64,000 nt of DNA from positions 19,005-83,004 of the forward strand of contig CAVDXX010000002.1 in NCBI GenBank assembly GCA_963613175.1, written 5' to 3'. The stretch's first letter is position 1. Each line of letters begins with the position of its first letter. The position numbers were made by a program, and so were the translations under genes. Positions 6,199 to 31,251 of this stretch are shown in pieces. The stretch comes from a bacterium. GTDB lineage: Bacteria > Patescibacteriota > Saccharimonadia > Saccharimonadales > Saccharimonadaceae. The notes beneath the pieces were generated by a model. That model was not told the DNA's origin. It was given only the letters and a program-made list of their open reading frames with translations, and searched no databases.

Positions 6199-6260
6199 AC
6201 ATATATTATACATCAAACTAAATAAAAGTCCTAAAGTTTTTTATGTGTTATTATATTAAT

Positions 6261-7901: not shown

Positions 7902-7916
7902 TGTTATAATTAATCC

Positions 7917-8204
7917 ATGGAGATAAAACGCGAGGATATTTTACATTTGGCGAAGTTGTCGAATTTTTCGGTTTCGGACGCAGAGGCAGAAAGTTTGGAG
8001 CGCGATTTAAGTGATATTATTAAATACATTTCTCAACTTGATGAATTAGAAACGGAGAATGTGGAGCCGACCTATCAAGTTTTTGAGATGGAAAATGTGT
8101 GGCGACCGGACGAGGTTTTGGAGCAGGACGCGACGCGAGAAGAATTACTCGCATTGACAGTTGCAGAAAAAGATCATCAAATTAAAGTCCCGAAGGTATT
8201 ATAA
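7917..8204 (+). CDS. gatC: Asp/Glu-tRNA amidotransferase subunit C
   Basis: 95 aa. HLAKLSNFSVSDAEAESLERDLSDIIKYISQLDELETENVEPT. Stop overlaps the gatA start (ATGA). Confidence 0.85.
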   Translation: MEIKREDILHLAKLSNFSVSDAEAESLERDLSDIIKYISQLDELETENVEPTYQVFEMENVWRPDEVLEQDATREELLALTVAEKDHQIKVPKVL

Positions 8205-9739
8205 TGAAAATTGCAAATCAAAAAGTTTCGGCGGTAAGTTTAGTAAAAGATGCGCTAGAAAAGGCGAAAAAGTTTGAAGATTATCATATTTTTACATTTT
8301 TGAACGAGGAGAAGGCCTTAGAAAAGGCGCACGAAATCGACCAGCGAATTAAAAATGGGGAAGAAGTAGGTCGGCTCGCGGGCGTGCCGTATGCCTTAAA
8401 AGATAATTTTCTCTCACCCGAGGGCGAGACAACCGCTTCGGCACATATTTTAGAAGGTTTTACTTCGCCGATTACGGCGACGACGGTGGAGCGACTCGAA
8501 GCAGAGGGTGCGATTATGATTGGACGGACGAATATGGATGCGTTTGCACACGGGTCGTCGACTGAAAGTTCGTATTTTGGACCGACTTTGAATGCTCACG
8601 ATCGCGAACGTGTAGCGGGCGGGTCGTCTGGCGGATCGGCAGTGGTGGTGGCGCTCGACATTGTGGAATTTGCGACTGGAACGGACACGGGTGGTTCGAT
8701 TCGACAGCCGGCTTCGTTTAATGGTGTCTATGGGCTAAAACCGACGTATGGGTGTAATTCGCGATATGGAGTCGTGGCGATGGCATCATCGACGGACTGT
8801 GTTGGCTTCTTTACTAAAACGCTGGAAGATATGGATCTTTTGATGTCGATTTCGAGTGGTAAAGACCCGAAAGATATGACGACTTTGGATAATTATTACA
8901 ATGGTGAATTTGAAGCATCTTGTCTCGGACACGCTCAAGGCCGCTCGGCCAAGCCTATGGTCCTCGACAAGGTGCTTTCAAATTCTGATAAAAAAACATC
9001 TCACTGCCCGACGGGTGATGCCACTTGGGGGTCCCCCATCGAGCTTGATGAGAATGGGGGAAAAGTGGCGGCAGGACCTGTCGGGAAGAAATGTATCGGC
9101 ATTATCAAAGATTTTGATAATGATTCAGTTGATGTGGAGATTCGGGAGGCGCTGAAACGGAAGTGTGAGTTGTTGGAATCGAAGGGACATGAGATTGTGG
9201 AGTTGTCGATGCCGGCTTTGAAATATGCGTTGGCGGCGTATTATATTATTGTGCCGGCGGAAGTGGCGTCGAATTTATCGCGACACGACGGCGTAAGATA
9301 TGGTTTTCGGTCGAAAAAGTCGGAAGATTTGGAAAAGTTGTATTCCGAGACGCGCTCGGAAGGCTTTATGCCGGAAAACAAGCGCCGAATTATGATCGGG
9401 AACTTTGTGTTGTCGAGCGGATTTTATGATGCGTATTTTTTGAAGGCGGCGAAAGCGCGAACCTTAATCATTGAAGAGTATAATAAAGCTTTTGAAAAAT
9501 GCGATTTTATCTTAACACCAGTAGCGCCAAATCCAGCATTTAAACTCGGTGAAAAAGTGAATGATCCGGTTGCAATGTATCTCGAAGATGCAATGAGCGT
9601 GCCGCTTAATCTCGCGGGAGTGCCGGGACTTACCGTACCGGCAGGAAAAACAAAAGCTGGATTGCCGATCGGTTTACAATTAATCGGTCCGCGCCGAAGT
9701 GATAAAAGTTTAATTATGTTCGCAGGGGAGCTTGAATAA
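8204..9739 (+). CDS. gatA: Asp/Glu-tRNA amidotransferase subunit A (amidase family) with a ~59-codon in-frame insertion
   Basis: Amidase signature GGSSGGSAVVVA...GTDTGGSIRQPASFNGVYGLKPTYG. C-terminal LPIGLQLIG. Confidence 0.9.
   Translation: MKIANQKVSAVSLVKDALEKAKKFEDYHIFTFLNEEKALEKAHEIDQRIKNGEEVGRLAGVPYALKDNFLSPEGETTASAHILEGFTSPITATTVERLEAEGAIMIGRTNMDAFAHGSSTESSYFGPTLNAHDRERVAGGSSGGSAVVVALDIVEFATGTDTGGSIRQPASFNGVYGLKPTYGCNSRYGVVAMASSTDCVGFFTKTLEDMDLLMSISSGKDPKDMTTLDNYYNGEFEASCLGHAQGRSAKPMVLDKVLSNSDKKTSHCPTGDATWGSPIELDENGGKVAAGPVGKKCIGIIKDFDNDSVDVEIREALKRKCELLESKGHEIVELSMPALKYALAAYYIIVPAEVASNLSRHDGVRYGFRSKKSEDLEKLYSETRSEGFMPENKRRIMIGNFVLSSGFYDAYFLKAAKARTLIIEEYNKAFEKCDFILTPVAPNPAFKLGEKVNDPVAMYLEDAMSVPLNLAGVPGLTVPAGKTKAGLPIGLQLIGPRRSDKSLIMFAGELE
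8912..9088. repeat. GC-rich nested-palindrome element inside gatA
   Basis: Stem 8912-8924 pairs with 8966-8979 around a 41-nt core (8925-8965). That core is 38/41 identical to 57183-57223. A second imperfect palindrome spans 9004-9088. Confidence 0.75.
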
Positions 9740-10158
9740 TGGACGGGGGTGTTATTACTTTTATTCTGGCGATTTTAATTGTAGCAGTGTTCGTTTTTTT
9801 GGCAATTCTTTTGACCGGAAAACGCGGTTATACTTTTAATCGCGAAGTTTACCAGTCGCGATTTTTGGCGATTGAAAATAAATTGAAGGAAAATAATCCC
9901 GCGACTTTTATGACCACAATTATTGAAGCAGATAAGTTGCTTGATAAGGCGCTGATTGAGATGGGTGTGCCGGGAAAAACAATGGGGGATCGTTTGAAAA
10001 AATCCGGCGATAAGTTTTCGAATCTGAATTCAGTTTGGCGCGTGCATAAAATGCGTAATGCGATTGCGCACGAATCGGGTTACGAAGTGAGTTATCGACA
10101 AGCGTTTAATGCCTTAACGGTTTACAAACAAGCGTTAAAAGATTTAGGAGCAATTTAA
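9739..10158 (+). CDS. Small N-terminally anchored protein with HEPN/DUF4145-like RNxxxH motif
   Basis: One N-terminal TM segment (ITFILAILIVAVFVFLAILL). All-helical C-terminal part with VWRVHKMRNAIAHE. 1-nt overlaps with the gatA stop and the gatB start. Confidence 0.5.
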   Translation: MDGGVITFILAILIVAVFVFLAILLTGKRGYTFNREVYQSRFLAIENKLKENNPATFMTTIIEADKLLDKALIEMGVPGKTMGDRLKKSGDKFSNLNSVWRVHKMRNAIAHESGYEVSYRQAFNALTVYKQALKDLGAI

Positions 10159-17144: not shown

Positions 17145-17825
17145 ATGGCAGATCTTTATATTGTTCATGGTTGGACCTATACGGTAGAGCCATGGAAAAA
17201 GACAATCGAATTGCTCAGAGGGCGGGGAATTAGCGTAAAAATGCTCCATGTGCCGGGGCTGACCGAAGAATCGAAGAAGGAATTTACGATTGAAGATTAC
17301 GTCAAGTGGGCGGATCAGGAAATTCCGGACGGAGCAGTGGCGCTAGGGCATTCGAACGGGGGGCGGATTTTACTAAATCTCTGTGCCATGAAACCAGATA
17401 AATTGAGAAATCTGATTCTGCTAGATGCGGCGGGGATTTACGAGCCGACGCTCAAGAAAAAGGTGGTCGAAAAGGTCGCCAAGCTCGGCAAACCATTCAA
17501 AAAGGTGAAGGTTATCGACAAAGCTTTTCATCGCGTGACCGGCTCGACAGATTATTCGCGTGCGCCGGAAAATATGAAAAAAACGTTGGCGAATATGATC
17601 GAATCGGATAGAAATCTGGATTTTTCAAAGGTCGAAACGAAGACTTTTATTCTCTGGGGCAAGAAGGATACAACTACACCGCCGCGACAGGCGACTTTGA
17701 TGTATGAAAAATTGCCGAATGCGGAATTGAAATTCTATGCGAATTGGACGCATGCGCCGTATATTTCAAGCCCAGAGGAGTTAGCGCGGGCGCTGGCGAC
17801 GCTGGTGGAGAGAATGAAAAAGTGA
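17145..17825 (+). CDS. Alpha/beta hydrolase fold protein
   Basis: Nucleophile elbow GHSNGG. C-terminal NWTHAPY (catalytic His context). Confidence 0.6.
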   Translation: MADLYIVHGWTYTVEPWKKTIELLRGRGISVKMLHVPGLTEESKKEFTIEDYVKWADQEIPDGAVALGHSNGGRILLNLCAMKPDKLRNLILLDAAGIYEPTLKKKVVEKVAKLGKPFKKVKVIDKAFHRVTGSTDYSRAPENMKKTLANMIESDRNLDFSKVETKTFILWGKKDTTTPPRQATLMYEKLPNAELKFYANWTHAPYISSPEELARALATLVERMKK

Positions 17826-19024: not shown

Positions 19025-20095
19025 GTGCATACAAAAGTGAAAAATACAGAAGCCAAAATAAATGAAATAAATGCGTGCAGTGAGGCCGCTACGGATAAAA
19101 ATGTAGCAAAAAATTGGCAAAAAATCGTCAAAAATTTTCCCGAAGCAAATTTCTTGCAGTCGCCAGAATACGGACGGATGAACGAAATGCTGGGCGAAAA
19201 AGTGATTACGGCAGATCTTCAGGGGAAAAACGGCGGTTTCGGACACGCTCTGATGATTGTGCGAGATGCGAAGCGTGGACGGTATCTCGAAATCCCGTGC
19301 GGACCGTTGATTAATTGGGAAGATGCGAAAGTACGAACAGAGGTGATGCGAAAAATTCACGAAACAGCACGAGCGGAAAAATGTGTGTTCGTGCGGATTC
19401 GGCCACAACTGATCGCTACTGAGAAAAATACCCGAATTTTGACGGATTTGGGGCTAAGAAAAGCTCCGATGCACCTAGCAGCGGAACACACGGTGATTAT
19501 TGATCTGACGCCGACAGAGGAAAAGCTGCTCGCAAATATGCGCCGACAGACTCGCTACGAAGTTCGACGAGCGAAAAAACTCGGGATTACGGTTTCGCGC
19601 GACAATTCGGAGGCGATTTTCCGCGAATTTCACCAAGTGCAGGCCGAAACTGCGAAAAGACAGGGGTTCGTTCCGCCATCGCTTGAAGTTTTACTAGCTG
19701 AACGCGAGGCCTTTGGCGAAAATATTTGGATTTATGTGGCTAAAACAGCGGAAGGAGAACCGGTGGCGTATGGTTTGATTATCAAAAATGGCCGCGAGGG
19801 GGATTATTATGAGGCAGCTTCGACGGATTTAAACCGAAAATTACCGGGAGCATATGCGCTCTTGTGGCAGGCGATGCGAGATTTGAAAAAAGACAGCGTG
19901 GAACGCTTTAACCTCTGGGGGATTGCGCCAAAAAATCAGCCAAATCACCGGTACGCAGGGGTGACAACCTTTAAAACCGGGTTTGGCGGAGAGATGATTG
20001 AGTATGTCGCTGCGCACGATCTGGTGATTTCGAGATTTGGCTATCTGAAGGATTTAATTGTCGAGAAAGCTCGCAAGAAACGGAGGCATTTATGA
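19025..20095 (+). CDS. FemAB-family peptidoglycan interpeptide aminoacyltransferase
   Basis: FLQSPEYGRM, AKRGRYLEIPCGP, RRQTRYEVRRAKK, YYEAAS, FKTGFGG. GTG start. Confidence 0.75.
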   Translation: MHTKVKNTEAKINEINACSEAATDKNVAKNWQKIVKNFPEANFLQSPEYGRMNEMLGEKVITADLQGKNGGFGHALMIVRDAKRGRYLEIPCGPLINWEDAKVRTEVMRKIHETARAEKCVFVRIRPQLIATEKNTRILTDLGLRKAPMHLAAEHTVIIDLTPTEEKLLANMRRQTRYEVRRAKKLGITVSRDNSEAIFREFHQVQAETAKRQGFVPPSLEVLLAEREAFGENIWIYVAKTAEGEPVAYGLIIKNGREGDYYEAASTDLNRKLPGAYALLWQAMRDLKKDSVERFNLWGIAPKNQPNHRYAGVTTFKTGFGGEMIEYVAAHDLVISRFGYLKDLIVEKARKKRRHL

Positions 20096-21105
20096 AAGAC
20101 GCCACTAATCGTAAAATTTGGGATGATTTTGTTAAAAATCGTCCGGAGGCGAATTTCTTGCAGTCATGGGACTTTTATGAGTTTCACCGCGCTCGCGGAA
20201 AAGAAGTAGTGCGGAGAATTTCGACGAATAAACAGGGGAAAATCGTGGCAGCTTATGCCGGAGTAGTAGAGACGGCAAAACGAGGAACTTATCTTGCAAT
20301 CGCCGGCGGGCCGTTGATGGACTTTTCTGACGAAAAAATCGTCTCTAACGTGTTTTCTGATATCCGCGAGCAAGGCAAGGCTCATAACTGCGTGTTTATC
20401 AGGGTGCGGCCACAAGAGCCAATGTCGCAAAATATTTTGAAACTTTTGTCAAAACAAGGACTAAAGCCGGCGCCGATGTATCTATCGGTGGAATATGCGG
20501 GGATTTTAGATTTACATAAATCCGAGGAGGAAATTCTCACGAAAGCATCGCAAGGATTTCGGCGGAAACTGCGAAAAGCCAAGAAAAACGAGGTCGAAAT
20601 TACTGCCGAGACCGATGATAAAGCGATCGAGGAGTTCTGTCGGCTCGAAAAACTACACGCCGAGCGGCAAAAATATGTAGCATTTTCGAGCGATTTTTTA
20701 AAAAAACAGTTCGAAGCGTTCCGGAAAAACGGAGAAGTAGTGATTTATACCGCAAAAAAAGATGGGGAAACTCTGGCGCAGAACTTTATGATTTTTTACG
20801 GCCCGGAGGCGAGTTATCATTACGGCGTATCTTCGGCACTCGGGACGAAATACTCGGCGGCGCCACTTTTACATCTAGCCGCGATGGAAGAGGCACGAAA
20901 ACGCGGCTGCATCCGCTACAATCTCTGGGGAATCGTCGGTTTAGACGAAAAATCGCACCGTTTTTATGGGGTGAGCGAGTTTAAACGTTCGTTCGGGTGC
21001 GAGGAATTAAAATACACACCGGCGCATGATTTAATTTTAAACCCAGTGAAATATCAGATTACGAAAATCGTCGAGAACATACGCAAAAAAGTGCGTCATG
21101 TATGA
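20092..21105 (+). CDS. FemAB-family peptidoglycan interpeptide aminoacyltransferase (paralogue)
   Basis: FLQSWDFYEF, AKRGTYLAIAGGP, FRRKLRKAKK, SYHYGVSS, FKRSFG. 4-nt overlap with the upstream paralogue. Confidence 0.8.
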   Translation: MKDATNRKIWDDFVKNRPEANFLQSWDFYEFHRARGKEVVRRISTNKQGKIVAAYAGVVETAKRGTYLAIAGGPLMDFSDEKIVSNVFSDIREQGKAHNCVFIRVRPQEPMSQNILKLLSKQGLKPAPMYLSVEYAGILDLHKSEEEILTKASQGFRRKLRKAKKNEVEITAETDDKAIEEFCRLEKLHAERQKYVAFSSDFLKKQFEAFRKNGEVVIYTAKKDGETLAQNFMIFYGPEASYHYGVSSALGTKYSAAPLLHLAAMEEARKRGCIRYNLWGIVGLDEKSHRFYGVSEFKRSFGCEELKYTPAHDLILNPVKYQITKIVENIRKKVRHV

Positions 21106-21755: not shown

Positions 21756-21768
21756 TATAATAGAAAAA

Positions 21769-21860
21769 TAATATCAAGAAGGAACGAGGGATCGGCCCAA
21801 CGACTTCCTGCCAACCTAGCGATGCCAAGGTGGTAAATCCGACCAGAAAGGAAAGATATG
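21769..21860 (+). promoter_or_regulatory. SAM-I (S-box) clan riboswitch, probably translational
   Basis: UAUCAAGAAGG..GAGGGAUCGGCCCAACGACUUCCUGCCAACC..CCAAGGUGGUAAAUCC..AGAAAGGAAAGAUAUG matches the S-box core (GAGGGA/GGCCC/GCAACC-like/AAGGUG.UAAAUCC). The P1 3' strand overlaps the SD and ATG 21858. TATAAT at 21756-21761. Confidence 0.8.
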
Positions 21861-22820
21861 TTCTATCGAACCGCGGAGAGCGTTTCTCCGAAACACCCAG
21901 ATAAACTTTGCGACCAAATCAGCGATGCGATTTTGGATGCGTATTTAAAAGAAGACCCGAACGCACGAGTCGCGGCGGAAGCTTGCGGTGGGCACGGAGT
22001 AGTGTTTGTGACCGGCGAAATCACATCGACAGCGACGGATATTGATATCCCGGCAATCGTGAGACGAATTGCGGGGGAAGTTGAAGTACATACGAAAATC
22101 GTGGAACAATCTCCCGAAATTGCGCAGGGCGTCGATACCGGGGGCGCGGGCGATCAGGGAATCATGATTGGGTTTGCGTGCGATGAAACTCCGGAACTTT
22201 TGCCACGCGAAGTCGTGTTGTCTCGTCGGCTAAATCAATATATTTACGAAAAGTTCCCGTTTGACGGTAAAACACAGGTAACGATTGCACCGGACGGTTC
22301 GATTGATTCGATTGTGGCGAGTTTTCAAAATGCGCCGAAAGACGAGCTTACGGAATTAGTGCAGGGATTTATTGCGGAAAATAACTTGTCCGGCAAGTTG
22401 GAACTGCATATAAATCCAGCCGGAGACTGGAATCAAGGCGGTTTTGACGCCGATACGGGGCTGACCGGGCGAAAGTTGATCGTGGACAATTACGGCCCGC
22501 GAGTGGCGATTGGCGGAGGTTGTTATTCAGGCAAGGACCCGTCGAAAGTCGATCGCTCGGCGGCGTATATGGCACGAAAAGTGGCAGTGGATTATTTGAG
22601 AGAGCGCGGGGCGCATGAAGTGTTGGTGCGACTGGCTTATGCAATCGGATACGCCGAGCCATTAGAAAAAACTGTGATCATTGATGGTCAGCCGGAAGAA
22701 ATCGAAGGCTACGATTTAACACCGAACGGAATTATTGAATTTTTGGACCTAAAACGCCCGATTTACGAACAAACCGCCCGCTATGGCCATTACGGCGAGG
22801 GGTTTGGGTGGGATAAATAA
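21858..22820 (+). CDS. metK: S-adenosylmethionine synthetase, compact form (320 aa)
   Basis: HPDKLCDQISDAILDA, GAGDQGIMIGFA, GLTGRKLIVD, GKDPSKVDRSAAYMAR. Confidence 0.88.
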   Translation: MFYRTAESVSPKHPDKLCDQISDAILDAYLKEDPNARVAAEACGGHGVVFVTGEITSTATDIDIPAIVRRIAGEVEVHTKIVEQSPEIAQGVDTGGAGDQGIMIGFACDETPELLPREVVLSRRLNQYIYEKFPFDGKTQVTIAPDGSIDSIVASFQNAPKDELTELVQGFIAENNLSGKLELHINPAGDWNQGGFDADTGLTGRKLIVDNYGPRVAIGGGCYSGKDPSKVDRSAAYMARKVAVDYLRERGAHEVLVRLAYAIGYAEPLEKTVIIDGQPEEIEGYDLTPNGIIEFLDLKRPIYEQTARYGHYGEGFGWDK

Positions 22821-23103
22821 TCTTATTCGAATAAAAAATCCCCGCGAGTTTCGAAGTTTATTTTTTATAATGTGTTATAGAGTCCAAACCTCCATGAGTA
22901 TTTATATTTTTAATATATGTATTATTGTAATAAAAATACTCTTCTAAATATGATCCTTCTGATGTAAGTTCAATAATGGCATATTTTCCCTCGGGGAAAT
23001 AGTCTATATAATAAAAATATAACGTCCCAACCTATATCTACTATTTCACTATCACATAAATAAAAACTAATTATGATGCGAGATGATTTAAAAATAAATT
23101 CTA

Positions 23104-25479
23104 CTAATATTTCGCCACGAAATGCATTCCGTAATCCACCCGAACCATATCGCCGGGTTGATAGAGCTCGCCGTCTGCGGTGTTATACCAGCCTCTAAAA
23201 CCAATCTTGTTTAGAGGCTCTTTCAACAAATAGAAATTGCCTTCCTTGAACACGAAATTGGTCGCGTCACTCATCCCAAACATCAAATCATCACTCGTCG
23301 TAACCTTCCATAAACGATTTCCTTCGCCGTCTTCTTCTGGCTTTAAGAGCATCTCGTCATTTAACTGATTGTGGAGTAGATAATTTTTAAAAGTCTCAAA
23401 ATCAAGATAGGCAGACAGGACTTTTCCTTCCTCGACGCGAAGCCCTTTAAACATATAATACGGCATCACATCACTGAATAGGGAATAATCATAAAGTTCG
23501 AGCTCATCATAATCGCGATTTTCCCAAGTAATATTTTTGCCAAAGTCATACAGGTTCGAAAGGATAACGGTTCCGTCGGTTGTTATGACGTTATTTGCGA
23601 TAATGTCATAATAACGCGTAGAAACGACGTGATAATATTCAACCGGTTCGTCGATAGTCTCAATACTAACAACTTTTACATACTCTATCTCGTTATTAGC
23701 ATTCAATTTCGCAATCTCGGTACCGACTTTAAAGTTCTCGCTATCATGAACGGAGACGAATTGATTTAAGTCTTTACTGAAAACTCCGTGCTGACCGACG
23801 GTCTTAAGTACTGTTCCGTCCGAAAAAGTGGTTTTCTGATAATGATTAGTGGTTTTACCTTGTTCGATCCAAATCGGATATTCGTAAGTGTAAGTTCCAG
23901 TTTCATAATTCCAAACCAAGAGTAAATCATTATAAGTAATATCCTCAATTTTTTTCGTACTGCCATCGGCGAGAGTAACTAAAGTTCCTTTGACTAGGCA
24001 AAAACCCGTCGCACTCGCAGTGATTGTGATATCGCCGGTCACCTTGTTAATTGTGATTGCGCCACTCGAAGAATCATACGTATAATCCGTCCCACTGGTC
24101 AAAGTTGTTCCGCCCATGGTAATCGTGACAGAAGAAGGCAACATGTCAAGGCTCGATGAAGAATTGACTGCAAGAGTGGTAGAATAACTTGAATAAATCA
24201 TTGCCGTATCCGAAGTAGAAGAAGACCCGTCATGACTTAGTTTCGAAAGTCTATAAGTAACCGAAAATTGCCATTTTAGGCTCGTTGTGTTCGATAAACT
24301 ACAATATCCGCTTTCGGTCGTAGCAGAGCCACAGAAGCTTTCGCCGATATTTCCGGCCTCGTCTTCACCGTAAACTTTGACATAGTAATTACCTTCTTCT
24401 AGATTTGTCAGAGTGTAGCTCGTCAGAGCAGAGCCGGTTTCATAAGTTGAGGTCGTCCCCGTGTCGGTATTATAAAGAACGATATAATAATTAGTGACCG
24501 ATGAGCCACCGGTGTCGATTCGATCCCAAGAGACTAATGCTTCGCCAATTACTGTATTCTCTTCAGGAATAGCGATGCTAATATTTCCGACTTTTGGGGC
24601 TTCAGTATCAACAACTTCAGAATTATCAACCGCAAGCGTCAGTTCGCCGACATTCACGGTATTAACCCCGGTACTGTTCAAAGTAATAATTGTTGTAGTT
24701 TCGTCGGCCAAGAATGAACCTCCTTCAGCAGTCTTAGCGCAAACCTCATAATTCTCGGTGGTATTTGCGCCGATTGAAAAAGTACCTAGCGCTGTCCCAG
24801 CGTTATTCACTAAGGCAATATTATCATTGCTCGAATCTAAAATGAAATTCCGATCATATTTATATGTATTCGCAACTGAAACTGTAAAACAGGCAATCGC
24901 ACCGCCTTGTAAATTACCGGTGGTGGGAGTGATACTAGCAATAATATTACCAGTATTATCCGTCGTGTAGGTTGCATCGCCGTCGATCGTTACCTCCGCG
25001 TCGATGTCGTCGGTTGTAATCGTAAATTGAAGTTTATACGTCCGACTTTCTTCGGCAGGGATGACTTCTCCTGGGTCTAAAATTTCTCCAGTTGCACTAT
25101 TTGTGATTACGGTTTCAACTGAAACGTGGCCAGAGGTATCGAGTTTTGCCGAGAAAGGGAAGTTGTTAAAAGCATAATTGTATGCCGAGCCGTTATTAAT
25201 TTCGACTAAATATGTCGCGACAAAGGTTTCACTCGTTCCACGAACTTTAAAAGCGATATTTAAACCATCGATGGTAGGGTTGGAATAATCCCTTAGATTC
25301 GAACTTTCGCTTTCGACGATTGTCGCACTAACGATTTCAAGTTTCCCTTGTTTTTTTAAGGTAATATCACCATTTAATCCCAAATCTTGTTTATATAATG
25401 CAAAACCAACACTCATGGATGCCACGATTATAAAAACAATAAGCCCAAGAATGTTGTATTTTGACAGTTTAAATGTCAT
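23104..25479 (-). CDS. Large exported surface protein: SipW-type signal, Ig-like repeats, FN3, Hint (intein-like) domain, C-terminal Listeria-Bacteroides-repeat-like module
   Basis: N-terminus MSVGFALYKQDLGLNGDITLKK is shared with the 191-aa ORF. FN3-like SWDRIDTGGSSVTNYYIVLY...NYYVKVYGEDEAGN. Hint block A CLVKGTLVTLADGS. C-terminal blocks YYHVVSTRYYDIIANNVITTD. Tail GFRGWYNTADG...HFVAKY. Confidence 0.6.
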   Translation of the reverse strand: MTFKLSKYNILGLIVFIIVASMSVGFALYKQDLGLNGDITLKKQGKLEIVSATIVESESSNLRDYSNPTIDGLNIAFKVRGTSETFVATYLVEINNGSAYNYAFNNFPFSAKLDTSGHVSVETVITNSATGEILDPGEVIPAEESRTYKLQFTITTDDIDAEVTIDGDATYTTDNTGNIIASITPTTGNLQGGAIACFTVSVANTYKYDRNFILDSSNDNIALVNNAGTALGTFSIGANTTENYEVCAKTAEGGSFLADETTTIITLNSTGVNTVNVGELTLAVDNSEVVDTEAPKVGNISIAIPEENTVIGEALVSWDRIDTGGSSVTNYYIVLYNTDTGTTSTYETGSALTSYTLTNLEEGNYYVKVYGEDEAGNIGESFCGSATTESGYCSLSNTTSLKWQFSVTYRLSKLSHDGSSSTSDTAMIYSSYSTTLAVNSSSSLDMLPSSVTITMGGTTLTSGTDYTYDSSSGAITINKVTGDITITASATGFCLVKGTLVTLADGSTKKIEDITYNDLLLVWNYETGTYTYEYPIWIEQGKTTNHYQKTTFSDGTVLKTVGQHGVFSKDLNQFVSVHDSENFKVGTEIAKLNANNEIEYVKVVSIETIDEPVEYYHVVSTRYYDIIANNVITTDGTVILSNLYDFGKNITWENRDYDELELYDYSLFSDVMPYYMFKGLRVEEGKVLSAYLDFETFKNYLLHNQLNDEMLLKPEEDGEGNRLWKVTTSDDLMFGMSDATNFVFKEGNFYLLKEPLNKIGFRGWYNTADGELYQPGDMVRVDYGMHFVAKY

Positions 25480-26549
25480 TTTTTAGCTTTTCCTTTACGG
25501 GGAACTTCTTTTTTCAGGTCAAAACGCCAAGCAATATCGCCACCGATGAGAATAAATGAAGCGCCAACTTTAGTCGATGTATAATTTATCGGCTTTCTCA
25601 CCTCGCCATGCGCATCAATCAATTCGTTAAAAGACGTCACTTCTATGACATTAATATGCTTTAAGTCCGGAACCGCATCCGTATTGACAATAATATTGTC
25701 GTAAGTCTTTAAGATTTTGCGCAAAGTCTTATTATATTTATTTTCACTTTTAATCATAGTAATCGTTGCACGAATGGCGAAAATCAGAGTGATAGCCGCA
25801 ACAACAAAACAAGTATACCCGACATATTTCACGATAGTAAAGAATAAAACATTTTCTTGTATTGTATCACTAAACAGTGAGCCATTGCCATCCGCTTCAT
25901 TGGTTGAAACTGGGATTTCGATTGTAGCACTAGTCAACGGGATTCTTAAATCGACATTGCTCTGTTTCTCGATCGTTCGCCCGAATAATTCATTCTCCAT
26001 ATCGTTTTCGACCACTAGGGAAATAGTGAGTTGTCCATCCATCGAGACGCCATATTTACTCTTGAAGTCGTTAAGTAAGCTATTATATTGTTGATAGTCC
26101 ACTTTTATTTCGGACTCAATATTAATTTTATCCGTATTGTCGTATTTTTTGGTAACCTTTTCGGACAGTATGTAGTCCTTTGACCAATAAGCTTCTTCAG
26201 TATCATCTTTATTTGCTGAAATTGTCCCCTTGATATAATATGAATAACTTCCGCTGACTTTCGTGTCAATGCTAAAATTGTAATTATAATCGATTAAGAC
26301 GTAATCAATCAGACTCGCAATGTAGGTATGATTTTTCTCAAGGTATGGTGTCTCGAAAAAGTTATTTTCTTTCAAATAAATCTTGTAATCGATATCTTTT
26401 TTCTCGTTATAGGCGACCGAAATTTCCTGATCGACATTGTGGCTATATTTTAATAATCCAAAACCTAAAGCACCAAAAACAAACACGAAAACAAAAAGCA
26501 CAATCACAATTGCTTTTCTGTTTTTTTCTGCTTTTTTGTCCTTTCTCAT
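25476..26549 (-). CDS. Two-TM membrane protein with large beta-rich ectodomain (DUF5305-like, from memory)
   Basis: TM segments at about aa 14-34 and about aa 245-268. 4-nt overlaps with both neighbouring genes. Confidence 0.45.
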   Translation of the reverse strand: MRKDKKAEKNRKAIVIVLFVFVFVFGALGFGLLKYSHNVDQEISVAYNEKKDIDYKIYLKENNFFETPYLEKNHTYIASLIDYVLIDYNYNFSIDTKVSGSYSYYIKGTISANKDDTEEAYWSKDYILSEKVTKKYDNTDKINIESEIKVDYQQYNSLLNDFKSKYGVSMDGQLTISLVVENDMENELFGRTIEKQSNVDLRIPLTSATIEIPVSTNEADGNGSLFSDTIQENVLFFTIVKYVGYTCFVVAAITLIFAIRATITMIKSENKYNKTLRKILKTYDNIIVNTDAVPDLKHINVIEVTSFNELIDAHGEVRKPINYTSTKVGASFILIGGDIAWRFDLKKEVPRKGKAKK

Positions 26550-27682
26550 TTTTTGAATAATTCCTGTAGCTCCACTGTCGGGTAGCCAATATATTTTATT
26601 ATGTATTTCACTTTTCCATAAACATCTTCGGCGTCGACCAATTCCGAATCTGCTTTTTCGTTTGCATCACCTTTGGTTTTAAAACGATATTTGTCGCCAG
26701 ATTTTACAATCTCGACTACTCGATGAGTAATAATTCTACCGTTCGAATTAAATACTAAAACATCGCCCTTGTTGATTTCGTCCGCGTTCTTTTTTGCATA
26801 AACAACGGCATCTCCTCGATTATAAACTGGATCCATAGAATTTGAAGCGACCGCAATCATATGATAATTTCCGATTCCGGCAACCAACGCGAAAATAATC
26901 ATAATCGCAATAATTGCCGGAGGAACAAAAATCCAATTGCGCCGTTTCTCAATCTGTTTTTTGTCGTGATACTTCAAGGTCTTATTGAATCTTAGATATA
27001 GATAATAAGGCATCAATATCCCGAAAACGGATGTGATATAATCTCCGAGGTTTGGAATGATAGGAACGATGAACCAGAATGTTTCTAACGTTAAGGTTAG
27101 GATCAATGTCGGGACTAAGCTCACTTTATACGTAATAAAAGTAAAAAGAGCGTTTTGTGCGACAATACTACACAATTCGAGACAGAAGAAAAGGAAGAAT
27201 TGCTCCGGACTATTAAAATCATAATAATAAGCAGATAAGGCTAAATCGTACAAAATAAAAATTGACGTCAGACCTGCAAGTTGCTTGAAGCCACCATCAG
27301 TCTTACGACAAGCGACGTAGCGTACAATTTCTCGGCTTATAACCATGACAAGAACGGGGAAAATATTGTAAAAGAGCCCTTTAAAACTATGTGCGTAAAC
27401 GCTATAAGAAAAACCGGTAAAAATGCCAAGCAGATACATGATCATGATGTATAGCAGGCAATAAATTATAGCGTACTTGATGCCGATTTTTTTAAAATAA
27501 TTATTATCTTTTGGGAAACCGCCGATAATAAGAACTGCTATAGCTAAAACGAGCCAGATCCCCATTTCAGCGAAACTGAGATAAGTTGAGCCCCTAAGGG
27601 GTACAATGATAAAAAGGTGGCTGATTAACAAATAGAAAAATATCGAAAACCCATAGATATAAATCTTTTTGCTTTTTTTCAC
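26546..27682 (-). CDS. Polytopic membrane domain fused to S26B (SipW/archaeal-type) signal peptidase I
   Basis: About 270 aa with about 7-8 TM segments. C-terminal part has ASNSMDPVYNRGDAVVY (Ser box), IITHRVVE (His box) and KGDANEKAD (box E). GTG start. Confidence 0.7.
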   Translation of the reverse strand: MKKSKKIYIYGFSIFFYLLISHLFIIVPLRGSTYLSFAEMGIWLVLAIAVLIIGGFPKDNNYFKKIGIKYAIIYCLLYIMIMYLLGIFTGFSYSVYAHSFKGLFYNIFPVLVMVISREIVRYVACRKTDGGFKQLAGLTSIFILYDLALSAYYYDFNSPEQFFLFFCLELCSIVAQNALFTFITYKVSLVPTLILTLTLETFWFIVPIIPNLGDYITSVFGILMPYYLYLRFNKTLKYHDKKQIEKRRNWIFVPPAIIAIMIIFALVAGIGNYHMIAVASNSMDPVYNRGDAVVYAKKNADEINKGDVLVFNSNGRIITHRVVEIVKSGDKYRFKTKGDANEKADSELVDAEDVYGKVKYIIKYIGYPTVELQELFKK

Positions 27683-27720
27683 ATCAATCCTTTTTAAATG
27701 TACCCCTTAAAATGTTCTGG

Positions 27721-28296
27721 CTAATTAGTTTTTTGGGCGTAATTTAAGGCTGCGGTCAAGTTTAGAGTTACATCTTCTTCAGTCGGAAGATCAGCGGCGT
27801 TTTCTGGAAGAACATACTCGACACGGACTTTACATTTCTTCTCGTTTGGCGTATCTGATGTCGACGCAAGCAATTCGTTGTTTAAGTCGCTCGTGCTGGC
27901 AGCATACTCTGTTGAATCGTAAGTCACGGTATACTTAATATACTTTTTCTGCGCTTCCGTCAAGGTCGGCGACATAGTAATACTGTTTAAGACCGCATCA
28001 AAAGTCCCTGCGTTTTCAACATCAACCGTAGATTCATAAAATTCACCCGGTTTCAAAGTGACGGCATAAGTAAATGTCGTCGCGTTTAGTGTTTTAGATG
28101 TCGCCTTTACGCTCCCTGTAGTCTCGGTATAGGAATCATTCTGAAATTGGACCTGCCAAAGTGCCTTCTTAAATGTTGCATTACCGTTAATGTTCAGAGT
28201 CTGCGCATAAGCAGCGAAACCGACTGACATCACGACAAACGCGATCGATAGAAATAGAATCGCCAATGACGAAGCGTTTATTTTTTTATGTTCCAT
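27721..28296 (-). CDS. Small exported beta-rich protein with SipW-cognate-like signal (TasA/camelysin-like candidate subunit)
   Basis: N-terminus ...VVMSVGFAAYAQTLNINGNATFKK. Strong SD AAAGGAGG 8 nt upstream of the ATG. 191 aa. Confidence 0.5.
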   Translation of the reverse strand: MEHKKINASSLAILFLSIAFVVMSVGFAAYAQTLNINGNATFKKALWQVQFQNDSYTETTGSVKATSKTLNATTFTYAVTLKPGEFYESTVDVENAGTFDAVLNSITMSPTLTEAQKKYIKYTVTYDSTEYAASTSDLNNELLASTSDTPNEKKCKVRVEYVLPENAADLPTEEDVTLNLTAALNYAQKTN

Positions 28297-28383
28297 TGAG
28301 TGTTTACCTCCTTTTATTAAATATTCTGCATAGGCATTATGCTTAATGTTATTTTATCATATGTATGACTTTAATGTAAGGCT

Positions 28384-28425
28384 TTTTTAAAAACAAATAG
28401 CCCCCGTGAATCCAAAGAGGGGCTA
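28384..28425 (-). terminator. Intrinsic terminator downstream of tRNA-Leu
   Basis: On the minus strand, a tagcccc / ggggcta stem followed by a T-rich run. Confidence 0.5.
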
Positions 28426-28440
28426 GAACTAAATCTGGTT

Positions 28441-28527
28441 TGGTGGGCGAGGAGGGACTTGAACCCTCACGATCCGAAAATCACAAGATTTTGAGTCTAG
28501 CGCGTCTACCAGTTCCGCCACTCGCCC
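28441..28527 (-). tRNA. tRNA-Leu (anticodon CAA), long variable arm, CCA encoded
   Basis: Reverse complement reads GGGCGAG..GCGGAACUGGUAGACGC..CUAGA-CUCAAAA-UCUUG..variable arm..GAGGGUUCAAGUCCCUC-CUCGCCC-A-CCA. Confidence 0.9.
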
Positions 28528-28601: not shown

Positions 28602-29837
28602 ATGGATTCAAAAAACGGTGGGCAGTCTGCTAGCGACTTACAGAGGCAAGCCGCGGCCGCAATCGCTAGGAAAAAAGTCTTAGCGGCCTATGCTGAGAAT
28701 GTGCAAAAATCCGCGAAAGAAGTTTCTGATAATGACGCGCACCTCAAAAATGAGCCTATCGCACCCAAAATCAATTCTGAATCTTGGAAAAAATATCATT
28801 CGGCGTGGCAGAATTATTACCAAAAATATTATAGCGAATACTATTCCAAAGCGGCGCGCACTTATATCGAGAAAGAAAAGCTAAAGCGTGCTCGTGCAGA
28901 AGCCGAAGAAGAGGATCTATTAAGATCCTTAACTAAGAACAGTGCGAAGCTCGGCCAAAAATCTGCGATGTCGCTCGGGGCAGGGAAGAATACACAAGCA
29001 AGCGCGTCCGAAAATCCCGAGGGCGCGAACGATCTTCGCGAAAATCTGCGCCGAAAAATTCGGACAAAGGCGACTGATAATGCAAAAAAATCCCGTCGTA
29101 AACGCCATCTCGCACCGATTTTAGCGGGACTTGCGGTAGTTTTACTGATTTTGTTTTTGCAATACAACCGATTGATCTTCGCGCCAATCATGGCATATGT
29201 TTCGCCAGGGAATGCGCCAGCGACAGAGATTGATGCGGTCGACCCGACAGTTTCACAAACCATTTCAGCGGACCCGCGCTTGATTATTCCGAAATTAAAT
29301 ATTGACGTGCCGATACATTTCGGGATCCAGCTCTCAGAAGTGATGTCAGCGATGAACAGTGGGGTGGCGCATTATCGCATTGCTGGCGCGAACGCTTATC
29401 CGGGAGAAGTTGGCAACACGGTGATTACCGGACATTCGGCAGGTGATGTGTATAGCTCGAACCAGTATAAATACATTTTTTCGGGTCTGGAACGGCTCGA
29501 AGACGGGGATTTAATTTACATAAATTATAATTCCGTCCGTTATACTTATCAAGTGACGAAAAAAGAAGTTGTCGAGCCGACCAATGTTGCGGCGTTAGTT
29601 GTGCAAACTGAAAAACCGATTTTGACGCTGGTCACTTGTACGCCGCTCGGAACTTCGCGTTATCGCCTGCTCGTTACGGCGGAACAAGTTTCCCCGAGCT
29701 GGGACGGAGCGGAAAATTCTGCCGGTATAAACACAAGCATAGATTCATCATCCACGGAACAAAATGACGATAGCGCCCTACCATCAAACGAACCGTCATT
29801 CTTTGAAGGAATCTGGAACTTCTTAACCGGAAATTAA
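28602..29837 (+). CDS. Sortase-family transpeptidase with long disordered N-terminal region
   Basis: TM segment LAPILAGLAVVLLILFL. VITGHS (His) and LTLVTCTP (Cys). RYRLLV (Arg). Confidence 0.8.
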   Translation: MDSKNGGQSASDLQRQAAAAIARKKVLAAYAENVQKSAKEVSDNDAHLKNEPIAPKINSESWKKYHSAWQNYYQKYYSEYYSKAARTYIEKEKLKRARAEAEEEDLLRSLTKNSAKLGQKSAMSLGAGKNTQASASENPEGANDLRENLRRKIRTKATDNAKKSRRKRHLAPILAGLAVVLLILFLQYNRLIFAPIMAYVSPGNAPATEIDAVDPTVSQTISADPRLIIPKLNIDVPIHFGIQLSEVMSAMNSGVAHYRIAGANAYPGEVGNTVITGHSAGDVYSSNQYKYIFSGLERLEDGDLIYINYNSVRYTYQVTKKEVVEPTNVAALVVQTEKPILTLVTCTPLGTSRYRLLVTAEQVSPSWDGAENSAGINTSIDSSSTEQNDDSALPSNEPSFFEGIWNFLTGN

Positions 29838-29853: not shown

Positions 29854-31251
29854 CTATCTCGTTAACTTTTCGCGAGTGAGTTCGCCATCACTAAAATAAT
29901 ACAACCATTTGTTATCGGTAATCGCGACGGGGAAATGATTCGAGACGTTTTTTGCGATAGACCGACGATTATAACCATCGAAATCATAAACAATCAATTC
30001 GCCGTTCGCTACCGTGTAAATCATATCGTTGTCGATCCAATCGAAATTATTGCCCTCAACCGACCATTCTCGCACGGCTCTCGCTTCCATATCGAGCGTA
30101 GCAATCTTGGTCCCGTCATTCATCGTCACAAATTCACCATCATGACCAATTTCTATCGTGGCTGGCACGAAAGTTAGATCATAGTTCGAGACTGGCTCGA
30201 AGTCAACTTTTTTATAAACCGCGATGTACTTGTCTTGAAGCGTAGTGATATACATCTCGTCATAAAACTTCGAAATCAAAACTCGAATCGGCTGATCGAC
30301 GGTTTCGAATTCCTTAATCTCATTACTACCAATTTTAAACCAACCGACTGTATATTTTCCTTGCTCGTTTACTGCTGAAAAGACGATCTCGTTCTCATAA
30401 TGGTCAAAATCATAAACACTGCTAGCCAAAACTGCCGAAATTGCCTTTCCAGAAACATCGATTTTGCGTAAATTGCCGTCCTGAACCACTAATAAGTTGC
30501 TTGATGAATTATCAAGAATCTCGATTTTATCAAAATCGGTGCCAAATTCTTTAGTCAAGTTAATGCTATTTTTTGCATTATTGACGTCAACTAATACCCA
30601 TTCGACCTTATCGCCAATTTTAAGTTTAAAAAGAACATGGTCGCCACTACGGTCCCAATCTGCAGACAAAATTTCGCCCGTAAACAACCCGACCGAGGCA
30701 TCTTCGGCTAGACTAGCGCCAGAAAGAAAATCCGAAAGATTAAGTTTTTTCGGTTCCAGAATGTCGGCGTTCAAGTCAATAATCTGCCATTCGGTAGTAT
30801 CGTCGGCGAGCAAGAGTTTGTCGTAATCGGGGGAGATCGAAGCGAACATTGAACCGGTGGTATCGAGTACTTTTTCAATTTCACGATCTTGGAGAAAAAG
30901 TCGCGGATAATGCAACCGATAAAGGTAACCTTCGGAAATATTAATTGTCTTCGACCAAGAATCGTAGCCGTCTTTTGAGACCGTGACAGTATGCTCGCCG
31001 CTAGAAAGTACTTTCGAAGTGTTTGTGCGTTGTAGCCAAGAAGACGAGCCGTCGATATCAAGATCGGCACCAGTCGGAATAGAAGAAACCTGTACCATAC
31101 CCTGTCGTTCAACTTTAAGGTCCGAATTTAGCCAATAACCCGAAACCACTAATGCCAGAACAACCACCATGCCGATTACAGCTAAAACCATAATCGCTTC
31201 GGAGATAATTACTTTTAAACTCTGGCGTTTTTTAAACTTCTCAGCATCCAT
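29854..31251 (-). CDS. PEGA-domain + beta-propeller-like membrane-anchored protein
   Basis: N-terminal TM segment. PEGA-like VSSIPTGADLDIDGSS...HTVTVSKDGYDSW. Confidence 0.55.
   Translation of the reverse strand: MDAEKFKKRQSLKVIISEAIMVLAVIGMVVVLALVVSGYWLNSDLKVERQGMVQVSSIPTGADLDIDGSSSWLQRTNTSKVLSSGEHTVTVSKDGYDSWSKTINISEGYLYRLHYPRLFLQDREIEKVLDTTGSMFASISPDYDKLLLADDTTEWQIIDLNADILEPKKLNLSDFLSGASLAEDASVGLFTGEILSADWDRSGDHVLFKLKIGDKVEWVLVDVNNAKNSINLTKEFGTDFDKIEILDNSSSNLLVVQDGNLRKIDVSGKAISAVLASSVYDFDHYENEIVFSAVNEQGKYTVGWFKIGSNEIKEFETVDQPIRVLISKFYDEMYITTLQDKYIAVYKKVDFEPVSNYDLTFVPATIEIGHDGEFVTMNDGTKIATLDMEARAVREWSVEGNNFDWIDNDMIYTVANGELIVYDFDGYNRRSIAKNVSNHFPVAITDNKWLYYFSDGELTREKLTR

Follow-up and report, generated by a model that had tools for sequence, protein, structure and literature searches.

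Between metK and a tRNA-Leu(CAA) gene of a gut or rumen Saccharibacterium (assembly GCA_963613175.1, contig CAVDXX010000002.1) lie four minus-strand open reading frames (ORFs), which we call P1, P2, P3 and P4 in the direction of their transcription. The stretch of the contig analyzed, positions 19,005 to 83,004, is 64,000 nucleotides (nt) long and is referred to throughout as the window. An earlier note on this DNA, made from the letters alone, had placed four genes here, the last three overlapping by 4 nt each, with the 3′ end of the tRNA facing them, and so they lie: all four ORFs are present (Table 1), P2 overlaps P3 and P3 overlaps P4 by 4 nt, and a gap of 38 nt separates P1 from P2. The tRNA, its 3′ end towards the operon, marks the upstream boundary and is not part of the system.

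We think it rather probable that the operon encodes an extracellular fiber system of the AbpX type, within the TasA superfamily, together with its own processing machinery. Donor-strand fibers of this superfamily are a recently recognized, cross-domain way to build biofilm matrices and pili. Support comes from the pair formed by P2, a signal peptidase I (SPase I), and P3, a DUF5305 protein, because such a pair is the conserved enzymatic core of both Tafi pili and AbpX loci. The earlier note had seen here a dedicated peptidase with cognate exported fiber proteins, and that idea was largely right in kind—the DUF5305 and SPase I literature supports it, as does the profile homology of P1 to AbpX. 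Its assignment to the TasA/camelysin family was wrong, and the island signature that it described was overstated.

Table 1. Features of the P1–P4 operon and its borders (window positions; ↓, predicted cleavage site)
Feature	Position	Strand	Description	Basis
P1	27721..28296	−	191 aa; ATG start; candidate major fiber subunit, distant AbpX-like member of TasA superfamily
P1 residues 1–28	28213..28296	−	Signal peptide ending in G26-F-A28, predicted SPase I site; transmembrane segment 11–29
P1 residues 29–47 (AYAQTLNINGNATFKKALW)	28156..28212	−	Conserved candidate N-terminal donor strand; most conserved segment of family
P2	26546..27682	−	378 aa; GTG start	ORF list
P2 residues 1–250	26933..27682	−	Polytopic membrane domain, ~8–10 transmembrane segments, no known family	Hydropathy
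P2 residues 256–370	26573..26917	−	S26B (archaeal/endoplasmic reticulum/SipW-type) signal peptidase I domain, Ser282/His320 dyad	TIGR02228
P3	25476..26549	−	357 aa; DUF5305 protein, putative accessory subunit of peptidase
P4	23104..25479	−	791 aa; large fiber-associated subunit, candidate tip adhesin or anchor
P4 residues 10–98	25186..25452	−	Signal peptide and P1-like module with GFA↓LYKQDLGLNG	P1 family profile, E 1e-7
P4 residues 314–378	24346..24540	−	FN3 domain in Ig/FN3-like chain (~47–490)	Pfam fn3, E 2.4e-4, below cutoff
P4 residues 494–635	23575..24000	−	BIL-type Hint (intein/Hedgehog-fold) autoprocessing domain	Profile and Foldseek
P4 residues 636–791	23107..23574	−	Conserved C-terminal region, helical segment and small beta domain	Alignment, AlphaFold2 secondary structure
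tRNA-Leu(CAA)	28441..28527	−	Upstream operon boundary	ARAGORN and Rfam
metK	21858–22820	opposite to operon	Convergent with P4
Shine-Dalgarno sequence AAAGGAGG	28307..28314	−	10 nt before P1 ATG	Read directly from sequence
Promoter-like site upstream of P1	28351..28380	−	CTTACA-18-TAAAAT with TG	Consensus scan only
Terminator-like hairpin, P4–metK spacer	22840..22856	−		Consensus scan

The peptidase and its DUF5305 partner

P2 was described in the earlier note as an S26B peptidase of SipW/archaeal type fused to a polytopic membrane domain, and this description holds. Its C-terminal 115 residues match TIGR02228 (sigpep_I_arch) at 99.1 bits (cutoff 51.85), and P2 scores 24.7 against Pfam Peptidase_S26 (cutoff 22.9). 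The catalytic Ser282 and His320 are both present, the His standing where bacterial enzymes have Lys; the pairs S282-M283 and H320-R321 and the motif TKGDxNxxxD (T336, G338, D339, N341, D345) are at least 95% conserved among 57 homologues. P2 is not SipW itself: it reaches only 74.3 bits against the Bacillus SipW equivalog NF046067, where the cutoff is 190, and, unlike SipW, it carries an additional N-terminal polytopic domain of ~250 aa. Searches of Pfam and the PDB found no relative of this domain, although it contains conserved residues (G86, G90, F91, E118 and R121) and the motifs GxxxGF and RE(I/M)VR. The gene adjoining abpX in Pyrodictium abyssi encodes a 380-aa peptidase that P2 matches by BLASTP over 313 residues (E 7e-20, 28% identity), and the two proteins are colinear through the membrane domain, both motifs included. 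Compared alone by hhalign, the P2 membrane domain gives only 0.8% with that peptidase, though the correct motif is aligned. A dedicated, polytopic SPase I of ~380 aa is thus a likeness between this operon and AbpX loci.

P3 was said to have two transmembrane segments and a large ectodomain, and its topology is just that: segments at 14–32 and 248–266 enclose the ectodomain, and a cytoplasmic domain follows at the C-terminus. It matches DUF5305 (PF17231) at 64.8 bits (cutoff 29) over profile positions 1–213 of 217. The DUF5305 literature that we found is all on donor-strand fibers, and for both Tafi and AbpX an accessory role for the peptidase has been proposed for this protein (PMC11821415, PMC12337348, bioRxiv 10.64898/2026.01.04.697558); by analogy, P3 is a putative accessory subunit of P2. 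In the Tafi pili of haloarchaea the conserved core, beside variable pilins, consists of TafD, a peptidase, and TafG, which is a DUF5305 protein, and strand donation has been seen by cryo-electron microscopy (cryo-EM) (PMC11821415, PMC12337348). The loci of abpX, in archaea and bacteria, hold an SPase I with ten transmembrane segments (TIGR02228), a DUF5305 accessory protein, AbpX-like minor subunits and tip proteins, and the bacterial ones have LPXTG or SLH anchors in addition (bioRxiv 10.64898/2026.01.04.697558).

P1 and the AbpX family

P1 is small and acidic. Once its signal peptide is removed—G26 and A28 of the predicted cleavage site are invariant in the family alignment—163 aa remain, with a pI of 4.6 and 12% Asp plus Glu. 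Mature AbpX has the same length. AbpX, from P. abyssi, is a member of the TasA superfamily that has been proven by cryo-EM to be a donor-strand fiber subunit (PDB 9SJ2/9RHP; bioRxiv 10.64898/2026.01.04.697558). We took its sequence from the supplement of the preprint, aligned it with its four available homologues, and compared this AbpX family with the P1 family by hhalign. At full length the two families align at 93.4% (E 2.6e-7) over 149 colinear columns, which pair P1 residues 18–180 with AbpX residues 44–204. Sequence identity between the two proteins is only ~19%. With the mature parts only, the value is 81.7% (E 1.1e-5, 135 columns), and the alignment is in register from residue 2. When the AbpX alignment was reversed, the value was 1.3% (E 0.041, 29 columns), and 20 shuffles of its columns gave at most 0.3% (E at least 0.23). 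For a yardstick, the accepted link between AbpX and TasA yields 60% (E 8.7e-5, 99 columns) by the same method. With moderate support from these profiles, then, P1 is a candidate distant, AbpX-like member of the TasA superfamily.

P1 does not belong to the TasA/camelysin family proper, where the earlier note had placed it, and we have dropped that assignment. It has no Peptidase_M73 match, and hhalign with TasA, whose sequence was checked against 8AUR, gives 1.1% and aligns only the local motif KPGD...N.G. The context of its cleavage site, G-x-[aromatic]-A↓A-[aromatic], does resemble the GTWA↓AF of TasA, and the motif KPGD...F.V.N.G is common to both. The link from P1 to the superfamily therefore runs through AbpX, since matches to TasA itself, by hidden Markov model (HMM) or hhalign, are absent or weak.

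A shared N-terminal strand

What P1 and P4 have in common is their beginning. Run over the window in six frames, the P1 family HMM matched two ORFs, P1 and P4, and because the match in P4 covers residues 10–98, P4 starts with the same module of signal and strand as P1. The common motif is G-[FY]-A↓x-[YLF]-xxx-L-x-I-x-G. Among 152 proteins with the module, 80 small and 72 large, its G is conserved in 97–98%, its A in 84–85%, its L in 88–95% and its final G in 87–96%, and in small and large proteins alike no part of the family is better conserved than the segment after the predicted cleavage site. Conservation reaches ~20 residues into the mature protein, in an alternating hydrophobic pattern; in P1, L34, G38 and W47 are invariant or nearly so.

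The region reads ...SVGFA↓AYAQTLNINGNATF in P1, ...SVGFA↓LYKQDLGLNGDITL in P4 and ...GLTYA↓QWSETLSLSATIS in AbpX. From mature residue 2 onward the P1 segment aligns with the donor strand of AbpX, W2–I12, of which W2 is the ‘aromatic clamp’. P1 and P4 both have Tyr at this position, an aromatic residue like the Trp of AbpX; in the family as a whole it is Y or F in 57% and L or I in the remainder. The P1 model from AlphaFold2 (pLDDT 85) is a beta-sandwich of residues 49–188 in which residues 29–47 have no structure and a pLDDT of ~50. Residues 25–44 of the P4 model (pLDDT 84 overall) are likewise unstructured, at less than 50. The donor strand of AbpX, too, is unstructured in monomer predictions (bioRxiv 10.64898/2026.01.04.697558), and TasA assembles by N-terminal donor-strand exchange (PMC9674648). 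By analogy, P1 may polymerize by strand donation, following cleavage of P1 and P4 by P2 at G-[FY]-A.

P4 and its Hint domain

Beyond the module, the AlphaFold2 model of P4 is a chain of beta-sandwiches, then a compact domain at residues 494–635, then helices and a small beta domain. By Foldseek the chain resembles the MAM-Ig-FN3 ectodomain of RPTPmu (E 2e-10) and contactin FN3 arrays. P4 had been described in the earlier note as a 791-aa FN3/Ig-like protein, which is true of these domains; the compact domain was missed. This domain has the Hint fold. Its profile matches the PDB entries 6TMM/6Y75 of BIL2 (Tetrahymena BUBL) over the full length at E 8e-7, and in Foldseek it superimposes on BIL2, NpuDnaB, the RecA mini-intein and Hedgehog HhC with TM-scores of 0.74–0.86 and deviations of 2–3 Å; single-sequence Pfam matches of the region stay under the cutoff. 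Compared with BIL2 and Hedgehog HhC (TM-score 0.74–0.83), P4 has the same N-terminal Cys and block-B His: Cys494, at the start of the domain, and His564 are invariant in 46 sequences, and in 28 sequences derived from the loci.

The far end of the domain is different. The canonical C-terminal His-Asn is replaced in P4 by Thr-Asp, in a conserved L-T-T-D that is followed by Gly, Ala or Ile, and the block-B Thr is not conserved; both count against this part of our account, and they make the activity of the domain uncertain. A canonical splicing intein was considered and rejected for want of the C-terminal His-Asn. With such a C-terminus, and with no +1 nucleophile, a trait shared with BIL2 and HhC, splicing is not to be expected; N-terminal cleavage or acyl transfer is, and by analogy the domain may do one or the other. 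BIL2 transfers its N-extein onto the amine of Lys (PMC8616854).

Hedgehog moves its N-terminal fragment to cholesterol. P4 might do something comparable and serve as a covalent coupler independent of sortase: the Hint domain would form a thioester at Gly493-Cys494 and then pass the fiber-bound N-terminal portion, with its P1-like module and Ig/FN3 stalk, to an amine. We consider this unlikely. If the amine belonged to the cell's own peptidoglycan or lipid II, the fiber would be anchored; if it belonged to a molecule on the surface of a host bacterium, an epibiont would adhere to it covalently. The conserved C-terminal domain of P4 would recruit the substrate, as the sterol-recognition region does in Hedgehog. 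Such a coupler would be the first link of Hint chemistry with a donor-strand fiber. The Hint domain has not been described for fibers of this kind: none is mentioned in the AbpX preprint, TapA of Bacillus has none, and the domains of BIL2 and Hedgehog, unlike that of P4, do not sit in a Sec-exported, fiber-associated protein.

After the Hint domain comes a region that is conserved, and colinear, in 26 orthologues and that has no HMM match. By eye, its small beta domain resembles the Listeria-Bacteroides/Flg_new repeat, with a motif GW-YNT-D...Y-PGD-V-V..G-HF-A-Y.

Fiber, sorting system or toxin

If the operon does make a fiber, events might run as follows. Sec would export P1 and P4, whose N-terminal signal anchor would keep them in the membrane. 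P2, working with the two-segment membrane protein P3, would cut both after the invariant G-[FY]-A and so free the conserved, amphipathic N-terminal strand, x-[Y/L/F]-x-Q-x-L-x-I-x-G. By donor-strand complementation this strand would insert into the next subunit, whose beta-sandwich is incomplete, and P1 would grow into a thin fiber. P4 would join one end of it through the same module, carrying the Ig/FN3 stalk and the BIL-type Hint domain; its place in the fiber is suggested by that module. The Hint domain would most likely cleave itself between Gly493 and Cys494 through a thioester, and would then either shed the portion from the Hint domain to the C-terminus or transfer the new C-terminus to a nucleophile. 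A role in host-cell/epibiont attachment is pure inference on our part.

A good many results weigh against this scheme. The earlier note had asked whether P1 has TasA-like HMM and structural matches, and had pointed to SipW-cognate signals of the TIGR04088 class. P1 has no match to Peptidase_M73 (PF12389) at E ≤ 1, nor do 47 members of its family at E ≤ 0.1; in NCBIfam neither P1 (at E ≤ 1) nor P4 has a match of the TIGR04088 kind, though HMMER filters can lose short models. A search of PDB sequences with P1 found no fiber subunit, and the family HMM missed AbpX even though 9sj2 and 9rhp were both in the set. In the HMM searches of Pfam, NCBIfam and PDB sequences, P1 and its family match DUF7927, FN3con, DUF11, CARDB and CBM_2 weakly, and by such matches (DUF11, CARDB, CBM_2) the fold is a generic beta-sandwich. 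The likeness of the P1 model to TasA is slight. Foldseek found nothing in the PDB at E ≤ 1e-3: the TasA fiber ranks fourth (E 6e-3, TM-score 0.36), beside chaperone-usher pilins and carbohydrate-binding modules, and AbpX falls outside the top 50. The hhalign match to AbpX drops to 54% (E 1.3e-4, 91 columns) when the signal and the N-terminal strand are removed. Mature position 4, finally, is Gln in P1 and P4, where AbpX has a calcium-binding Glu or Asp.

The operon might instead sort proteins and build no fiber. P1 and P4 would then be monomeric surface or secreted proteins—a coat, perhaps, or S-layer-like proteins or adhesins—and the shared motif would do no more than mark them for recognition and cleavage by P2 and P3, in analogy to the cognate signals of exosortases and archaeosortases. 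The peptidase, the DUF5305 protein and the motif are established, after all, and polymerization is the step that we infer; P1, with its generic fold, has no strong structural match to a fiber subunit, and in the many members of its family that are large and built of several domains the module could be a mere leader. We nonetheless hold this arrangement to be somewhat unlikely. For recognition by SPase I, positions −3 and −1 normally suffice, whereas here some 20 residues of the mature protein are conserved with alternating hydrophobicity, and in both monomer models the segment lacks structure, as donor strands do. The homology with AbpX, moreover, spans the whole of mature P1 in register, and arrays of small paralogues beside one peptidase, described below, resemble sets of major and minor pilins. 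Much less likely still, and indeed highly improbable, is a locus for delivery of polymorphic toxins or effectors, in which P4 would be a surface pre-toxin, its Hint domain would free a C-terminal effector onto a neighboring (host) cell, and P1 to P3 would serve for export. Hint domains do often precede C-terminal toxin domains in polymorphic systems such as MafB and Rhs, ~155 aa of P4 follow the Hint domain, and the organism belongs to an epibiont lineage. That stretch of P4 is conserved and colinear among its orthologues where a toxin would be polymorphic, however, and matches no toxin family; efficient C-terminal release would need an Asn that the end of the Hint domain does not have; no immunity-like ORF is present, the minus strand of the 283-bp spacer beyond P4 being free of ORFs of at least 20 aa; and searches of PADLOC and PHROG gave no matches.

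The fiber reading, to return to it, can be set beside three known systems. Most AbpX loci share with this one a DUF5305 protein and minor or tip subunits that carry the same donor strand as the major subunit. The bacterial AbpX loci so far described are from Bacillota and Chloroflexota and have LPXTG or SLH anchors, whereas the Saccharibacterium locus has neither. The tapA-sipW-tasA operon of Bacillus subtilis (8AUR) likewise pairs an S26B peptidase with a major subunit and a larger accessory protein, both bearing the cognate signal, but it lacks a DUF5305 gene. Tafi pili resemble our system in having the signal peptidase and DUF5305 pair beside variable structural subunits, in being filaments of strand donation whose tip, adapter and anchor proteins share an N-terminal pilin-like domain, and in that the enzymes are better conserved than the structural proteins. 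They differ in that Tafi subunits are archaeal and mostly exported by Tat, and that TafD has four transmembrane segments.

Distribution of the cassette

The P1 family occurs mostly in gut and rumen Bacilli. It has no Pfam model, and the 57 close homologues of P1 carry no Pfam annotation, yet among 1.84 billion representatives its profile finds 7270 clusters (50% identity) at E ≤ 1e-3. A scan of genomes with a closer subset of the alignment gave 79 loci. The order P1-P2-P3-P4 is kept in ~40 of these, and 31 have a P4 with a Hint domain. The P1 module is always N-terminal, however long the protein (from 180 to over 1990 aa), and its genes are often arrayed beside the peptidase; some Bacilli have up to eight of them around a single peptidase/DUF5305 pair. 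To judge by layout, these arrays resemble the major and minor pilin sets of other systems. In one array from gut Bacilli (L049, 9367–18934) five tandem paralogues of ~180 aa stand with larger module genes, and other gut Bacilli have five or six separate loci per genome (L047, L054, L056, L059, L065; metagenome-assembled genome SIG199). In a relative from a gut metagenome (L004–L006, from ~12140 onward), a P1-like module heads a giant protein of 3000–5000 aa, the gene for which lies downstream of the peptidase and of a short DUF5305 gene (211 aa).

What this locus suggests, then, is that the donor-strand fibers include a bacterial family that is very large (7,000 clusters or more at 50% identity), unannotated and absent from Pfam. 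One of the common forms that the system takes is a compact cassette of four genes, the large subunit of which has a Hint autoprocessing domain. Saccharibacteria are ultrasmall epibionts whose attachment to their hosts has, to our knowledge, been explained so far by type IV pili. An additional fiber, gained by horizontal transfer and with a major subunit undergoing fast amino-acid replacement, would be a concrete candidate for interaction with the host or with surfaces, and the cassette is small enough for heterologous expression. Our literature search found no paper that combined Saccharibacteria with SipW.

Origin of the cassette

The earlier note regarded the operon as an AT-rich island against the tRNA, with about 30–40% GC where flanking genes had 45–60%. 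The direction is correct and the size is not: the actual ranges are ~35–43% and 40–51%. Positions 22821–28440 have 38.2% GC and the window 44.2%; the mean for the four genes is 0.389, against 0.452 ± 0.026 for the other 40, and P3 (0.353) and P2 (0.366) are the lowest of all 44 genes in the window. At third codon positions the difference (0.405 against 0.455 ± 0.038) is only ~1.3 standard deviations. Nor are there hallmarks of mobility. The four genes gave no integrase match in Pfam and NCBIfam; a search for repeats of at least 14 nt found no att-like copy of the tRNA 3′ end; the minus strand of the 283-bp spacer has no small ORF of 20 aa or more downstream of P4; and the cassette has no matches in phage and plasmid collections, or by PHROG and PADLOC. 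Because integrase, att-like repeat and small downstream ORF are lacking, this is not a classical tRNA-integrated island, and origin from a mobile element was rejected on these grounds.

Foreign origin is better shown by relatives than by GC. The host's EF-Tu and EF-G each belong to a 90%-identity cluster in which the members with names are Candidatus Saccharibacteria bacterium. Assembly GCA_963633035.1 (L086) is 99.74% identical to the window over 20.3 kb, with the same gene order, and holds the cassette of the same species; a congener (L007) has the cassette with P2 89%, P3 78% and P1 74% identical, and there too the tRNA-Leu and a sortase gene lie alongside. Beyond these two, the closest cassettes, 56–70% identical, are in Bacillota-type genomes of 24–29% GC in which cassette and flanks have the same GC. 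One such cassette (L087, 60–66% identical, on a contig of 24% GC) has a germinant receptor operon (GerA, GerAC and a spore permease) on one side and cotE on the other (6215–9809 and 17281–17823), and from these flanks its carrier is an endospore-forming Firmicute. Comparison of the sequences suggests that the cassette was probably acquired by cross-phylum transfer, from low-GC Bacillota into this lineage of Saccharibacteria, and then partly ameliorated (39% in a 44% genome); the simplest reading is that the acquisition is old and the locus not an active island.

The operon could instead be an ancestral trait of Saccharibacteria, its AT-richness due solely to the amino-acid composition of membrane and secreted proteins. 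The small deviation at third codon positions would fit, as would the absence of integrase and att repeat, the retention of the place next to tRNA-Leu in the congener, and the equal GC of cassette and flanks in other genomes labeled Saccharibacteria (L036, L043). What makes this quite improbable is the pattern of identities: P4 is 58–67% identical to orthologues in the 24–29% GC genomes, the spore-former among them, and only 34–36% to those in other Saccharibacteria-labeled genomes, whose cassettes have ~46% GC, while housekeeping proteins of the window are only 31–34% identical to their Bacillota counterparts. The exceptional GC of P2 and P3 within the window speaks against it as well.

Amino-acid replacement in P1

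Over their 20.3 kb the window and L086 differ by 52 single-nucleotide polymorphisms. P1 has seven nonsynonymous changes and no synonymous one, and all other genes together have eight and 34 (Fisher p = 7.5e-5). The changes are N39S, Q48K, N53D, D54N, T57A, K64E and A187V, six of them within residues 39–64, just after the putative donor strand. The pattern is a signal of diversifying selection or of recombination, and suggests that P1 presents an exposed, fast-evolving surface. The sole amino-acid difference in P4, D38N (25366–25368), is at the position homologous to N39S in P1 (28180–28182); both directly follow the invariant Gly of the shared motif, by co-variation of the strands or by coincidence.

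Regulatory sites and neighboring genes

P1 has a strong Shine-Dalgarno (SD) sequence, as the earlier note observed; the contrast drawn there with the rest of the window was too sharp. Its AAGGAGG core is shared with one other gene in the window, and because an SD core of at least 5 nt is present in 11 of the 44 genes, it is strong but not unique. Starts of the leaderless type are indeed common: at least 11 of the 44 genes have TATAAT 6–10 nt upstream of the start and no SD, and are probably transcribed as leaderless mRNAs (28602, 31251(−), 33737(−), 36400, 39685, 45488, 60933 and 62976, for example). The promoter-like site of P1 lies downstream of a terminator-like hairpin that follows the tRNA. 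At the other end of the operon, the spacer between the convergent P4 and metK is 283 bp long with 26% GC, and includes an inverted repeat of 25 nt (22902–22926 and 22998–23022), 84% complementary, with a 71-nt spacer of its own. A SAM riboswitch (RF00162, 59 bits, gathering score 44.4) occupies 21768–21862 (+), directly upstream of metK.

Beyond the tRNA are genes for a sortase of 411 aa, the N-terminal region of which is long (28602–29837, +), and a PEGA-domain protein (29854–31251, −). The sortase was considered as a part of the cassette and set aside: by eye P1 and P4 have no LPXTG, and apart from the window it accompanies the cassette only in two close relatives, L007 and L086. At 19025–21105 (+) two overlapping, neighboring genes encode FemAB-family proteins of 356 and 337 aa. 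The pair points to synthesis of cell-wall peptide cross-bridges, which would matter if peptidoglycan amines are the target of the P4 Hint domain. Farther away, at 45488–48433 (+), a 981-aa protein with a coupling-protein domain of the TrwB/VirD4 type probably belongs to the type IV secretion or conjugation-like apparatus that Patescibacteria are known to have.

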